Positions 43,901 to 49,900 of a stretch of 64,000 nt of DNA are shown here, one piece after another. Position 1 is the first letter of the stretch; each line of letters starts with the position of its first letter. The position numbers were made by a program. Source of the stretch: a virus. Lineage: Duplodnaviria; Heunggongvirae; Uroviricota; Caudoviricetes. Location of the stretch: IMG/VR virus record IMGVR_UViG_2562617085_000008, one strand, 5' to 3'.

Positions 43901-46900
43901 TTTAGGATGCGACTATTGTGGTAGAACAATGTAAACCATAATTAATCTGCGTGCGGATACATGCTTCATAGATAGGATATTCTGGTTTGGGTTGTGAATG
44001 TGTTGGTCATCGAGTGGACAATAAGGTAAGAGGAGTAACTCCTGCAAAACAAAAAAAGAGTTCAACAAAATCAATCAGTTAAAAACACGAGAGATCTGTA
44101 TAAAAAAGCATCGTAAATTCTGTATTTTTCCTTTAAATATAATATGTTATTGAGTTTTGTAAAATCTACCAGTGTGGTACATGGATATCGATACCACGGC
44201 TAAGTATAAATCTGGTGTTACTACCGTGAAAGACTCGGTACGACTGGATCCGTGGGTGTTTATGTTCTCCGCAGGATATCGTTTTTAATTTTCTCTGCAA
44301 AACCTCTGCAAAACCCCTCTGCAAAACTGGTCATCAAATGACCAGTTTTTTCCATTCCTTACCGCGTGCGTCGTTGTAAATATCGATCATTTTTTGATTC
44401 GAATGGCCTAGCAAAATTTTGGTATCAACCCCCTGCTCTCTGAACAATCGCTCTGATAAAGATCTCTGCTCATGGAAAGAGGGTGGGGTGCCATTAGCAC
44501 GCCAGTTGTAATCCACAGAATCCCGGGCTTTTTTAAATGCAACGGTTAATGTTGCTGGCTTAACCATCCCGCCGCGCTTAGCTGTCCCTTTCGCGTGATG
44601 GTGGTGCAATAGCCACGGACTAAGAACGCAATCGCGGCAGGATGACACCACATCATCCAGGGTGAGATTTAATTTATCGCAACGCAGAGCCAGAGGGATG
44701 GCAATCCGGGTTCCTGTTTTTTGCTGTTCGACATGAAGATAACCATCCCGGATATCCGAAAATTGCATTTTGCAAATATCTGAAAGGCGCTGGCCTGTCA
44801 TCAGTGCCAGCAGCATACCGCGCTGTAAAAAGTAACCATCCTTTTCCGCTGCGTTATAAATCATCATCCACTCATCAAAAGTCAGTCGCTGTCTTGATAT
44901 CCGCACCTGCGGTTTTTTTGCAGATTCTGCAGGGTTAAAGCCTGGCGGGACATCGCCCGTTTGCTGAGCTTCCCGGAAAACATCGATCAGTACTTTCCTG
45001 AAAATTTGTCCCATTCTGTTATGTCCTCTGGCCTTGTACTCTTCCAGTACTGATACCACATCTTTTACGGTTATGGCATCTAACGGTCTGGTGCCAAAAC
45101 GTTCATCAAATACCCTGAGAGGGGCCGCTTTCTGTTTCAGCGTGTTGAGTTTGATCTCGCCGTTTTCATATCTTTCCTGTTGAATTTTTCTGTAATTATT
45201 CAGAAAAATGGTAACGGTTGATGAACCGCCGGTATCACTAATAATTTTCTCCTGCAGACTGAGCATTTGTTCCATTTGCTGCCGGGCAAGACGGCTGTTC
45301 GCTTCTGCTGCAATAGTTTCTGCCAGTTTCTGGTCAATACTGCCGAGACCGTGATTTTTGCCTGTTATGGGATGCCTGTAACGCCAGTAAACTTTGTTAT
45401 TTCTTTTGTCAAAATACGGAGATAATCCCGGAACATCGGTTTTATATTTTCGCGGGCGCGCCATCTTCCAGTATCCTCTTCAAAGCAGGGTGATCTGTGG
45501 CGATCACCTCCGGCTTGTTTACCATTCCGACAAAGCGAGCTTGCGGATCCACTCGCCAGCGTCTTCCAACTTTTTTGGGGAGAGGAAATATCATTCCGGC
45601 TTTAGCGTATTTACTTAACGTACTCGGAGTAGGGACCGGTTCACTGAATTCCTCTTTTGCCCACTCAGTGAGCAGAATAAGTCTTGCCATGAGCGTCGTT
45701 CGCTAATCATGGTCGCCGCCACTATAGCTGGTGGGCAACGACCGGGGTTGAACATTAAAAATCAGCCTGATTCGGGATCAGTTTTTGCCAGATAGCTGAA
45801 ACGTATTTTGCCTGGTAACGAGCGTCATCCAGCGCATTGTGGCGCTCACCTTCGAATGGAATAGCCGTTCTGGCATCGAAGTCTATGGCTTTCCCCAGCT
45901 CAACGATTGTGCGTACATCGCGATCGTTGTAGTAACGCCACGGGCAGGGGATCCCCTGCCGTTCGTATGAACGGCGCAAAATCGTGTTGTCGAAGTTGGC
46001 TCCATTTCCCCAGACCTGAACAAAAAATTCACCGGAGTTTTCGTCGATAAATTCCCGCAATTGTAACAGTGCATCATCTAACGGGATTTCATCGGTCATA
46101 ATGGCAGATTGCGCTTCGCGTGATTGCTTAAGCCACCATTTAATGGTGTCCCGATCAATGACTCCGCCAGCAGTTTCCAGATCGATAGTCTTACTAAATT
46201 CCGGTCCCATATCTCCGGTTTGCGGATCGAAAAATATTGCACCTATTGAGATAATCGGGGCATCAGGATTTTTTCCCATGGTTTCAAGGTCGATCATTAG
46301 ATGGTCACACGTCCTGCTGGTGGATGTGATAATGCGATGACCGTTCACCGTAATTAAGGGATCTGCCGTCTCGCCAGTTTCACTATCGCTGGCGTGGTCC
46401 TGAGCGCTGCCAGCATTCTCCTTGTGTGGATGTTCAGCGCCTTCCATTTTCTCCGAATCGTCTTCCTGAACTTCAACCAGGTTCTTGTCATCGAATGTTT
46501 CCTGGTATGTTGCGTCGCCCATCACCGCGCCACAATCAGGGCAGTTGCCGCCACTCCTCTGACCGCAGGCGGTGCAGATCTTTTCCGGTTCCTGTTGCAC
46601 TACTGGTTCAGGTTGTTTCGTTTCTGGCTCGTTTTGTTGCGTATTTGGGCTGTTCTGTTCCGCTTTCTGGTCGTTCTGTTCCGTTTCTGGCTGATTCTGG
46701 TACACAGAATCGCGGGTCTGGATCCCCTTAATCCATTTCGGATCATTCGGGTCGCTAATCCCTTCAACAAATTCTCCGCGAGAGGCAGCCAGTAATTTGT
46801 CTGCATCGACAGGATTTTGGGGCGGAATGTTTTTCCGGGCTTCATGGAGTTCTGCCCGCAGTTTCTGATATTTCGCATCAACAGAATTTATCTGTGGCTG

Positions 46901-49900
46901 AGCATCCATCGACTGCGTGTCCTGATTATGTTCAGTTGTATCCGGTTCCACTGCTTCAGTCGTTGCCTGTTCATCTGCCATTGCGCCAGATGGCTGCGGT
47001 TTTTCTTCATCATCCTGTTTTCCTTCTTTTGTTACACGCTGCGGCATTGGAGCAGAGGAGCGACCGCAGGCAATATCCACGATTTCTGGATCAGGGTTGG
47101 CATGGTCGGTTTCGGTCAGTACTTTGTTCAGATATTCGGTAACACGGTGGGGAGTAGCCTCGATACCAATTGGTGCTTCTTTCACGGACGCAACCACTAT
47201 CGCGCGGGAATAATCCAGGTGACCAGGCATGGCGATGAATTTGTCACGAAAAACAGAAAAGGGCGGCTTATTCTCTGAAACGATTTCTTCAATGCGTTTG
47301 GCGTGTGCCGGATGTGGATTGTAAATATCGATGTCCATTGAACGGGCCAGAACGCCAGCGGCAACGTCACGTTCTACTGACGCATCATCGTGGACAAAAC
47401 CTTCACCGCGATCGGTAAGAATTCCTCCGCCAGCATTAGCGCCGGATGGCGTGCGGCTGATGCGTAAAACACGATTTCCTTTCATCCACTCTTTTGTCAG
47501 CAGACCTCGATCGGTATAGTCAGCGTCCAGGTATGCTTCGAAAAAAGCAGTCATTAACCCCAGACTGGAATTAACGGGATTAGGGAAAACTTTGTCTGTG
47601 TCGCGTACCAGTTTGTGAAGGTCGCGAATCTCCAGCGGGTCGAGCAGCTTTGTGTTGTGGGAAATAGCCAGGGCAGTAACAGCAGGCAGTTCTTCAGCTC
47701 GTGCGATATGTAATGCCTGAAGTTCTTCCCGTGAAACGTGCGTTACCGGTTTTTCGCTGCCATGTTGCGCAAGCCAGCGAATGGGCAGTTCCTGACCGGA
47801 AATCGGCAGGAGCATATTATCCTCAATCTCAGCCATGTCTTCGCCATTGACGTTGGTATTGTCAGAGCTGGCTGGTTTGTCCTGAACTGAGGGGGAAGGC
47901 GCTATAAATATCATTGTGATGCCATCTTCCCCGCCTTTTTCATAGCGGTTGCAGAATTCAGTATCGAACACACCTTCAGGCGGCAGGTCATTAACAATGG
48001 GCAAATTCACGCGAACAGGTTTTTTGAAATCCTCTTCGTCAAATCCAGCATCGTCCATTGCGACAACACCCCGTGATATTGCAACCGATAATTTTTTTGC
48101 TGTGCGCCAGTAAAAACCGCCTTTAATCCCAAGGCGTTTTCTGACTTTGTCATTTTTGGCTTCGTAATACAGTGCAATTTCTTCTTTATCAGTGCTCATT
48201 GATAAACCTCATAACTATTTTAAGGTTGTACGAATCCCTGCCATTGCTGGCATGCTTAATCAACGGGTATGGCGTTAATACGGCTGGCGGGTTATCCAGC
48301 CGGTATTTCGTTATTCAGGTACAGCGATACTTTGTTTAACGGGAGACATTCACCGGAAATTTTTTGCTCGTCTCTTGCCTGATGGCAGGATTCTTTACTG
48401 GCATAAATTCCGGTAATCACATTCTGTGGCTCACCTGTTATAAGAAAAACCGTCATCATCAGTGCAAACGCTGAACTCACTGCTGCCCTCCGAAAATGCC
48501 AAGTTCAAGAAGGGCAATTCTGGAGAGTATGGAATTATCATTGAGAAGATAAGGCTCATATTTTCTCATCCTGATGGCGTCTTCAGTAAACTCCCGGTTA
48601 CTGAGCAGAATACCAATATTAAAACACCCTTCAGACGTATTAACGTTTGGTAGTGACGTTTCCATTATCGCGTCCTCAACAATGAATTTTGTGATGTGGT
48701 GCCTGGTGCCTCCAGGTGACGTTAACCAGTTAACAATTAACGCCGGAATACAGAATCACCCATAACGCTGTTTTTAGCTTTAACTGTTCCGCGTGCGCTC
48801 AGCCGCATTCACCACATCACAAAATTCACTTTAAAAAGGGCGGCAGAGCAGTCACGGAGTAAAACTGATACCGCCAAACGTCACCAGAAAATTGATAACA
48901 GAAGGCGTTGCAGCGGGGTTGTCACTTAAGCGTATGGTCAACCTGACAACCCGGTGTCCTCAACGGGGAAGAAATAACCCCGCCATACTTACCGCCGCAC
49001 CATTTCGCGGGTTGCCACAACCGGAAGCGCACGGTCGACGAAAATTTAACGACAGGCTATCTATGAACCAGCTACCTCGCCGTGCGCTTTCGCGTTATGG
49101 TCTGACTTTTCAGGGAAATATCCTTTCAGTAAACTGTCAGTGCCGGATGCTCACCCGCGTCCGGCGCACGCACTCCACCTCACCCGTGGAGAACTACTTA
49201 ATTACCAACCTTAGCTTCGTTGGTTAGCTATTAACGCGGGTATGTAATCATTCTGGCAATGCTTAATGCCGCTGCTTTTTCCAGATTGGTGATATCCTGC
49301 TCCAGAGCGGACAGTTTTTCAGCCTGCTTAGCCCTGGCTTCATTGGCCCATTTCAGATCCTGCGCTGCATTAATTTTCTGGCGCATCCACTCATAAAGTT
49401 CATCATCGGTATAGTCTGGTGCGATGATGACGGGTTCTCGTTTCTGCATACTGATTCCTCGCGGTGCTGTTTCGCTTATCAGCCGTTAGATTTTGCCGAG
49501 CTGGAAAGCGCCTGTTTAAATTCGTTGAAGCTGAGAGCTTCTTCGCCGTCGGCAAGACCTTCGAAGTATTCTTCATAAGCCTTTTCCATGATTGTGTCGA
49601 AATCCATATCACTCACCTGAGTTTCTTTCCAGCCAGCGACGGGCACCATTTTCGGTTTTAAACGTTTTGCTTTTGGTATACGTCATCGCGGTGAACGTGC
49701 CGTCCTGGTTGGGGAACACGCCACATACCAGAGATTCGCTGTTGCCAAGATCGATAGTATCCATGCTGACCTCATTTCCCCTTAACGCCGGGTAGCGGAA
49801 CTGTTTGCTGAGAACACCGTGCGGTGTCTTGATGGGTGGTAATTTAGTTTTCTCATGAATGTTGGTCAAGTATTTTTAATGAGAAAACTCAATATTTAAT

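Follow-up and report, generated by a model that had tools for sequence, protein, structure and literature searches.

Introduction

RecE, encoded by the Rac prophage of Escherichia coli K-12 (b1350), is a workhorse of recombineering, and the role of its N-terminal region of roughly 600 residues is a decades-old question. A review assigns the separable nuclease domain of RecE to residues 564-866, and reports that the N-terminus is dispensable for ordinary RecET recombination, yet boosts linear-linear recombination (PMC11611040). Phage T4 DexA and its E. coli homologue EcD (‘HREX’) are also DNA exonucleases (Kang et al. 2025, PMC12153337), each a single domain of about 185-227 amino acids (aa). 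‘DnaQ-like 3'-5' nucleases’ of the same enzyme class are described by Zheng et al. 2025 in lambdoid phages, where they occur near int and within certain Rec modules (PMC12315714).

Here we describe a gene at positions 45755-48199, on the minus strand, of a 64,000-nucleotide (nt) stretch of tailed-phage DNA (IMG/VR record IMGVR_UViG_2562617085_000008), which we refer to as the window. Its 814-aa product is a RecE chimera in which the 5'-3' PD-(D/E)XK nuclease has been exchanged for a 3'-5' exonuclease of the DEDDh type, inverting the polarity of the enzyme. An initial annotation of the window had rightly recognized the DEDDh C-terminus, the missing recT, and the position of the gene in the slot that recE-recT occupies in Rac. 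It overlooked the RecE-chimera nature of the protein, the presence of the protein in RefSeq and UniRef, and the dicBF operon to which the gene belongs.

Results

The gene and its product

The gene is an uninterrupted open reading frame (ORF) of 814 codons with an ATG start and zero internal stops. E. coli O157:H7 encodes the identical protein, entered in RefSeq as WP_000102168.1 (“exonuclease”), and the window DNA at this gene is 100% identical to that of E. coli O157:H7 TW14359 and EC4115. UniRef and RefSeq already label the protein ‘exonuclease’ or ‘3'-5' exoribonuclease’. Public databases already contain the sequence and both of its Pfam domains, and what we address is a gap in function and annotation rather than a new entity. 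The parts of the gene are as follows, with ratios of nonsynonymous to synonymous substitution abbreviated as dN/dS and AlphaFold2 as AF2.

45755..48199, minus strand: ORF of 814 aa, putative RecE-N::DEDDh chimeric exonuclease (RefSeq WP_000102168.1)
47030..48199, minus strand: aa 1-390, folded N-terminal RecE-family scaffold (AF2 model; dN/dS 0.15)
47633..48034, minus strand: aa 56-189, PF06630 Exonuc_VIII, RecE N-terminal (Pfam, E=4.1e-34)
46353..47861, minus strand: DNA 83% identical to Rac recE, with the mosaic joint at its end
46349..47029, minus strand: aa 391-617, acidic/Gln/Pro-rich linker, mostly disordered, common to RecE
46532..46576, minus strand: aa 542-556, four-Cys zinc ribbon
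45788..46303, minus strand: aa 633-804, predicted DEDDh 3'-5' exonuclease domain (Pfam Rv2179c-like; DexA/EcD subfamily)

A RecE N-terminus that ends at the RecE nuclease boundary

The N-terminal part, which the initial annotation held to lack any obvious motif over some 350 residues, turns out to be clearly related to RecE. A Pfam search of this half finds Exonuc_VIII (PF06630) at aa 56-189 with 118.7 bits against a cutoff of 25, and aa 58-617 align with aa 50-592 of Rac RecE at 75% identity, with no similarity past aa 617 (BLASTP). The NCBIfam exoVIII equivalog NF007259 scores 1093.2 bits, under its cutoff of 1269, and its model positions 1-603 of 877 match aa 1-617 only. At the DNA level, the recE homology stops at codon ~616, which corresponds to RecE aa ~590, and the joint falls at the start of RecE's PD-(D/E)XK nuclease domain. 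Rac RecE matches the PDDEXK family PF12684 at aa 615-850, whereas the 814-aa protein has no PF12684 match, and a canonical RecE-type C-terminus is likewise absent from the domain search, in agreement with the earlier view that this nuclease is not of the RecE fold. Because the DNA homology ends where the RecE nuclease domain begins, the protein is a RecE chimera with its nuclease polarity inverted. The linker and the zinc ribbon, both of which had been seen ahead of the nuclease, belong to the RecE-derived part, and about 600 N-terminal residues are RecE-homologous.

Chi sites (GCTGGTGG) are found on either side of the DEDDh module. One, at 46316-46323 (plus strand), is some 30 nt away from 46353, where the recE homology breaks off, and the other, at 45727-45734 (plus strand), falls in the 64 nt that separate the stop codon of the exonuclease gene from the start of xis. 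The whole window holds 15 Chi sites, against 2.7 in shuffled sequence, and this density is about normal for E. coli.

The comparison with Rac itself shows a mixture of shared and exchanged features. The two proteins have in common the PF06630 domain, the conserved core, the acidic linker and the zinc ribbon, and the two genes occupy the same place in a leftward early operon upstream of xis-int. They differ in the C-terminal nuclease and in the first ~57 residues of the protein. In Rac, recT overlaps recE, while here xis follows the exonuclease after 64 nt, and Rac's recT, ralR and rcbA have no counterpart.

A DEDDh exonuclease domain of the DexA/EcD subfamily

The C-terminal part matches the Pfam family PF16473 (Rv2179c-like) across aa 633-804, which covers profile positions 2-177 of 177 (E=2e-67; 226.7 bits against a cutoff of 27), and there is a weak additional match to RNase_T (PF00929) on the same protein. 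D637, E639, D737, H787 and D792 align with the catalytic D7, E9, D119, H186 and D191 of T4 DexA. All five are invariant across the aligned stand-alone homologues, and the ExoI (D-x-E), ExoII (D) and ExoIII (H-x4-D) motifs are each present. The complete catalytic pentad bears out the 3'-5' exonuclease motifs that had been noted by eye. The legend to Figure 5 of PMC12153337 gives the DexA catalytic residues as D7, E12, D119, D191 and H186. Residue 12 of DexA is a Gly and the aligned acid of the D-x-E motif is E9; the E12 of the legend is probably a misprint.

DexA (PDB 8KEL/8KEN) is the closest solved structure by sequence (8KEL, E=1.6e-6; 27% identity) and belongs to the same DEDDh subfamily. 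Closer still is a stand-alone form from enterobacterial prophages, 59% identical to our domain, that fits the description of EcD. Unlike DexA and EcD, which are single-domain proteins, the domain studied here is the C-terminus of a much larger polypeptide. It also departs from the residues by which EcD is distinguished. EcD is characterized by loss of the Asp at DexA position D90 (the ‘tetramer’ Asp), where it has Ala, and here that Asp is kept as D709. The reported recognition residues for 5-hydroxymethylcytosine, DexA W152 and D169, correspond to Tyr757 and Ala771 here, with an alignment that is uncertain near D169. The stand-alone proteins of the type we call P0111 have Ala at the D90 position (A78 if the start is MIDLETMG) and Trp at the W152 position. 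We equate EcD with this type by residue numbering alone, and the EcD accession HAK9828821.1 is not among the cluster members listed.

Since DexA and EcD, the nearest characterized relatives, both act on DNA, we infer that the domain is an active Mg2+-dependent 3'-5' exonuclease with DNA as its substrate. A run of PADLOC on the protein gives a generic CRISPR-associated DEDDh match only (E=1.7e-5).

Rv2179c of Mycobacterium tuberculosis, the founder of PF16473, is reported to be a 3'-5' exoribonuclease. Our domain resembles it in its strong match to the same Pfam family, but is closer to the DNA exonuclease DexA. Neither sequence nor profile search retrieved a PDB entry for Rv2179c. The nucleases of Zheng et al. 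are of the same class, but the portion of that paper available to us does not describe a fusion to a RecE N-terminus (PMC12315714).

Folded parts, linker and selection

Structure prediction, which the initial annotation had suggested, returns a confident fold for aa 1-390. From a single sequence, AF2 reached a mean predicted local distance difference test (pLDDT) score of only 33. With an 81-sequence alignment, most of aa 1-390 exceeds a pLDDT of 90, the linker is disordered, and the DEDDh part is poor because few aligned sequences cover that region, so the model is good for aa 1-390 only. The model of aa 1-390 has no structural match in PDB or BFVD. A catalytic motif within this N-terminal core was considered and set aside, as the conserved R231, W238, G241, T262-D263, P325-G326 and R332 are unlike known active sites.

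Between the two folded parts lies the acidic, Gln- and Pro-rich linker (aa ~391-617), of which aa ~465-617 are also common to the YdfE-type exonucleases described below. Rac RecE and the nearer E. coli relatives also have the zinc ribbon within it (C542-x2-C545-x7-C553-x2-C556), which distant family members lack. As a hallmark of the whole family it was rejected, being found in only three of 13 DEDDh-type and two of 19 PDDEXK-type representatives, and it is confined to the subgroup near E. coli.

Selection follows the same division. In Nei-Gojobori comparisons with an orthologue of 82% nucleotide identity (locus L013), dN/dS is 0.15 for aa 58-400, 0.47 for aa 401-540, 0.67 for aa 541-617 and 0.235 for aa 618-814. 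Purifying selection acts on both folded parts, and constraint on the linker is relaxed.

Position within a dicBF-type operon

The gene sits in a lambdoid prophage integrated at ompW, with the integrase gene abutting an ompW fragment. On the minus strand the order is a DicA/CI-like repressor, ydfA, ydfB, ydfC, DicF, dicB, a ydfD-like gene, the exonuclease, xis and int. The neighbors of the exonuclease, from repressor to prophage end, are these.

49954..50361, minus strand: DicA/CI-like helix-turn-helix repressor, presumed controller of the leftward operon
49231..49764, minus strand: ydfC, ydfB and ydfA (DUF1391) homologues, promoter-proximal dicBF-type genes, 95% identical to K-12 Qin
48838..48889, minus strand: DicF small RNA (sRNA; Rfam RF00039, 76.7 bits)
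48477..48665, minus strand: dicB (RefSeq annotation, Pfam)
48292..48480, minus strand: DUF1482 (ydfD-like), directly upstream of the exonuclease
45442..45690, minus strand: xis, excisionase, 64 nt downstream of the exonuclease
44334..45464, minus strand: int, lambda-type integrase (Arm-binding domain), with the prophage end at the ompW fragment

From ydfA to dicB (48477-49764), the DNA matches the Qin dicBF operon of K-12 at 95% identity, and the exonuclease is the last cargo gene, in the ydfE position, of a Qin-type (PL-like) dicBF operon. With a Qin-type dicBF block beside a RecE-type gene, the ompW-site prophage combines features of Qin and Rac, and the correspondence in gene order upstream of xis-int upholds the original placement of the gene in the recE-recT slot. 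In K-12, the dicBF operon is transcribed from dicBp, an analogue of PL, under DicA repression; functions are known for DicF, DicB and YdfD only, and transcripts reaching ydfE have not been detected (PMC10448788). A promoter and terminator scan of 44000-51000 gave nine promoter-like sites against 9.0 expected, with no above-chance signal before the exonuclease, and so offers no evidence that the gene has its own promoter.

An annealase gene of the RecT, Red-beta, Erf or Rad52 type is neither annotated nor otherwise detectable anywhere in the 64 kb, the operon included. The flanks of the gene hold dicB, DUF1482, xis and int with no recT-like gene adjacent, just as had been reported, and an annealase is absent from four other related loci as well. 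A Gam-like RecBCD inhibitor and a Rec module are also absent from this prophage by annotation and Pfam.

Three gene types and an exchange point in the linker

The gene ranks among the commonest prophage genes of E. coli. Among 5426 complete E. coli genomes, 1252 match at least 80% of its length, with nucleotide identities of 80-100%. The DEDDh module by itself occurs in 4053 of the 5426, cryptic prophages included, with up to seven copies per genome. O157 genomes carry several lambdoid prophages and 6-8 copies of this gene family each.

We observe three related gene types. Rac recE shares aa ~58-617 with our protein, an 823-aa YdfE-type exonuclease shares aa ~465-814, and the present fusion has both. 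As the stretch common to all three is the low-complexity linker, this is the place where N- and C-terminal modules are exchanged. Over the linker, zinc ribbon and DEDDh domain (aa ~465-814) the YdfE-type protein is 90-97% identical to ours, and it occupies the same slot, after dicB and a ydfD-like gene and before xis-int. Its N-terminal ~460 residues, in contrast, are of another sequence type (YdfE_N/YdfE_C) that is only distantly related to the RecE-type core. The K-12 ydfE gene is a pseudogene truncated by the insertion sequence (IS) element IS2E, and what remains of it matches residues 1-256 of the intact 823-aa exonuclease of other E. coli at 87% identity; because of this truncation, K-12 is without a DexA homologue.

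L022:6079-6999: K-12 ydfE pseudogene
L012:3570-6041: intact YdfE-type counterpart

The domain also occurs alone. In Salmonella and E. coli, CPS-53-like prophages encode a stand-alone 189-aa version (59% identical) in the same slot, immediately before xis-int. At one such locus (L008:4743-6570), the genes before it are a DndB-like gene (PF14072), YfdP, DUF2303 and an ORF of no known family, and xis-int follow. Elsewhere (L004:737-3127), a broken copy of the fusion is present as three consecutive ORFs of 456, 157 and 183 aa after dicB and DUF1482, and the last of these is the database entry for a ‘stand-alone’ 183-aa 3'-5' exoribonuclease (P0074).

The same architecture in divergent relatives

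We drew the diversity of architectures from a search of aa 1-617 alone, because the full-length query returned only near-identical E. coli sequences, and for the C-terminal 200 aa the matches listed, many of which were partial, included no protein longer than 350 aa. The N-terminal region was searched exhaustively against 1.84 billion cluster representatives and yielded 236 clusters at E <= 0.001, from which 80 family representatives were taken (50% clusters, at least 450 aa). Thirteen of the 80 have a DEDDh C-terminus, 19 a PDDEXK, and 48 neither. Pfam on a subset of 66 members finds 12 with Rv2179c-like, 17 with DUF3799 (PDDEXK) and three with RecT in the same polypeptide. The catalytic residues are intact in 11 of the 13 DEDDh fusions; of the remaining two, one has E->K and D->A changes and one is gapped at three positions.

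Two of the DEDDh fusions, P0270 and P0282, have N-terminal regions only 28-36% identical to ours, and both are encoded before int without a recT. For P0270 the order is a repressor, a few small genes, the exonuclease, xis and int, and for P0282 it is kilR, the exonuclease and int. At the loci L012 and L013 the exonuclease is likewise found before int with no recT, and at locus L015 xis lies between the fusion gene and int.

Some relatives of the scaffold have no recognizable nuclease at all. In two of these, P0332 (786 aa) and P0275 (814 aa), the gene is followed by an overlapping Sipho_Gp157 (PF05565) gene.

L018/L019:5001-7921: nuclease-less RecE-N/YdfE-type scaffold with Sipho_Gp157
L020/L021:5001-7996: nuclease-less RecE-N/YdfE-type scaffold with Sipho_Gp157

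Weak, sub-threshold C-terminal matches to Rad52_Rad22 (E 0.02-0.09) are seen in P0309, P0332 and P0373. Such proteins are consistent with the ‘RecE-2’ proteins without a nuclease domain that Zheng et al. mention (PMC12315714).

Other features of the window

Between the two prophages of the window, at 30150-43100, lies a type III effector island with nleA, nleH1-2, nleF, nleG, espM1 and a further NleG-family gene, interspersed with the IS66-family element ISEc8 (35814-38147), decayed IS256, IS630 and IS3 transposase genes, and an integrase remnant. In the late region, after a DNA methyltransferase gene, the two prophages share one set of RNAs (2540-3151; 60706-61106), comprising tRNA genes, STnc100 and AgvB. 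A sok antitoxin RNA lies beside hokD at 55620-55794.

2882-3090 and 60851-61043: sRNA STnc100
3092-3151 and 61045-61106, minus strand: anti-GcvB sRNA AgvB

Discussion

We observe a protein whose architecture, joint, catalytic pentad, purifying selection, slot before xis-int and recurrence in divergent relatives are all directly evident, and it is a real and probably functional RecE-family early-operon nuclease. In the literature accessible to us, we found no description of a RecE-scaffold::DEDDh fusion or of the swap at the domain boundary, and searches for Rv2179c/PF16473 in prophages, or for YdfE as an exonuclease, found no reports.

What such a protein would do is best approached by what it cannot do. 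A role as an exonuclease-annealase recombinase of the RecET type is impossible for the 814-aa protein, because the 5'-3' nuclease and the annealase are both missing and the wrong overhang would be made; a 3'-5' enzyme removes the very 3' tails that annealases and RecA use. We instead favor a role in the processing of DNA ends during phage DNA metabolism, because the scaffold carries recombination effectors, DnaQ-like nucleases occur in Rec modules, and DexA works at breaks. The gene would be expressed when the leftward dicBF/PL-type operon is released by the DicA/CI-like repressor. The DEDDh domain would then degrade free 3' ends or single-stranded DNA in the 3'-5' direction, having been brought by the RecE N-terminal scaffold to the same site or partner as RecE. 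In this way the 3' ends of linear DNA could be trimmed or removed during prophage derepression or lytic growth, and this end processing may modulate recombination that depends on the host, much like that of T4 DexA at double-strand breaks. In its structural and biochemical part, this explanation is very likely correct. The specific biological role is a tentative proposal, somewhat short of an even chance although it leads the alternatives below, and for the explanation as a whole, with mosaic architecture, 3'-5' DNA exonuclease and DNA-end role taken together, we judge the chances to be about even.

The alternative that comes next in our ranking, though we consider it unlikely, is that the protein excludes other phages, with the DEDDh domain digesting superinfecting phage DNA (e.g. 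the hydroxymethylated DNA of T-even phages) to the benefit of the lysogen, in the manner of EcD. Kang et al. 2025 report that EcD digests T4 DNA and not unmodified double-stranded DNA, and that it makes E. coli resistant to T4 (PMC12153337), and the P0111-type stand-alone protein that best fits its description is 59% identical to our domain. The retention of the module in 4053 of 5426 genomes, even in cryptic prophages, the DndB-like gene beside the stand-alone form, and the neighboring dicB, known for protection against phages (PMC6832061), all suit such a role. However, our gene lies far from the start of a leftward operon under repressor control, with no above-chance promoter before it and, in K-12, no detected transcripts reaching ydfE (PMC10448788). 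The EcD residues are also not reproduced, with D709 kept and Tyr757 and Ala771 in place of Trp and Asp (the last by an uncertain alignment), the PADLOC match is generic, and the defense reading leaves the fusion to a RecE scaffold unexplained. The EcD data themselves come from a single study with plasmid expression, for which our literature search found no follow-up. An anti-defense function, which we think improbable, would instead have the exonuclease destroy immunity nucleic acids or signals, such as retron multicopy single-stranded DNA, the complementary DNA of reverse transcriptases or linear and cyclic oligonucleotides, or create 5' overhangs refractory to RecBCD. This would fit an early-operon gene in a prophage that has neither a Gam-like RecBCD inhibitor nor a Rec module, and DEDDh enzymes do act on single-stranded DNA and short oligonucleotides, in a family that takes in RNases and dinucleases (PMC9779919 and PMC11706625), but the protein has no homology to any known anti-defense protein.

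Two further explanations come last, and both seem to us highly improbable. The fusion could be a functionless relic, an accidental in-frame joint of a decaying recE and a neighboring exonuclease gene in defective prophages. A joint within a low-complexity, recombination-prone linker common to several gene types, with Chi so near, could arise by accident, and broken copies do exist, both as the 456-, 157- and 183-aa fragments and as the K-12 ydfE cut by IS2. Intact ORFs of ~814-823 aa, spanning nucleotide identities of 80-100% and found in over 1200 complete genomes, are nevertheless hard to reconcile with decay, as are dN/dS values of 0.15-0.24 in both folded parts and the same architecture, catalytic residues kept, in relatives with N-terminal identities of only 28-41%. 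Alternatively, the protein could be a RecE-type recombinase that uses an annealase in trans from another O157 prophage. Its ~600 RecE-homologous residues, the stimulation of linear-linear recombination by full-length RecE with its N-terminus (PMC11611040), and the several lambdoid prophages and 6-8 gene-family copies of each O157 genome make this conceivable. Domain content has already largely refuted it: the PD-(D/E)XK domain that gives 5'-3' resection and a 3' tail is wholly absent, the exoVIII equivalog score is under its cutoff (1093 versus 1269), a 3'-5' exonuclease would remove the substrate of the annealase, and neither this locus nor four other related ones encode an annealase.

A broader proposal concerns the scaffold itself. 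As RecT or a PDDEXK nuclease is fused to the same scaffold in relatives, we argue that the scaffold is a platform for DNA transactions. The RecE/YdfE N-terminal region could, by extension, be a general docking scaffold of lambdoid prophages with interchangeable heads, namely a 5'-3' PD-(D/E)XK nuclease, a 3'-5' DEDDh nuclease, RecT and possibly a Rad52-like domain, and the DEDDh version would then be a self-contained, single-protein system outside recombination. Such a system could exclude superinfecting phage DNA, or could alternatively make long 5' overhangs that bar RecBCD loading, and so replace Gam where a Rec module is missing. We regard this extension as speculative and rather doubtful.

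Beyond the question of its precise role, DNA-end processing being our preferred reading, the protein bears on the biology of RecE. The N-terminal region of RecE has been reused with a nuclease of opposite polarity, without an annealase and with both parts under selection, in very many E. coli genomes, and this reuse makes it look like an independent targeting or scaffold module. The chimera and RecE are thus a natural protein pair for finding what this module binds. Roughly three in four complete E. coli genomes have the DEDDh module, and one study ties its family to anti-T4 defense. What the fused form does would therefore matter both for phage resistance conferred by prophages and for recombination between the many lambdoid prophages of O157:H7.

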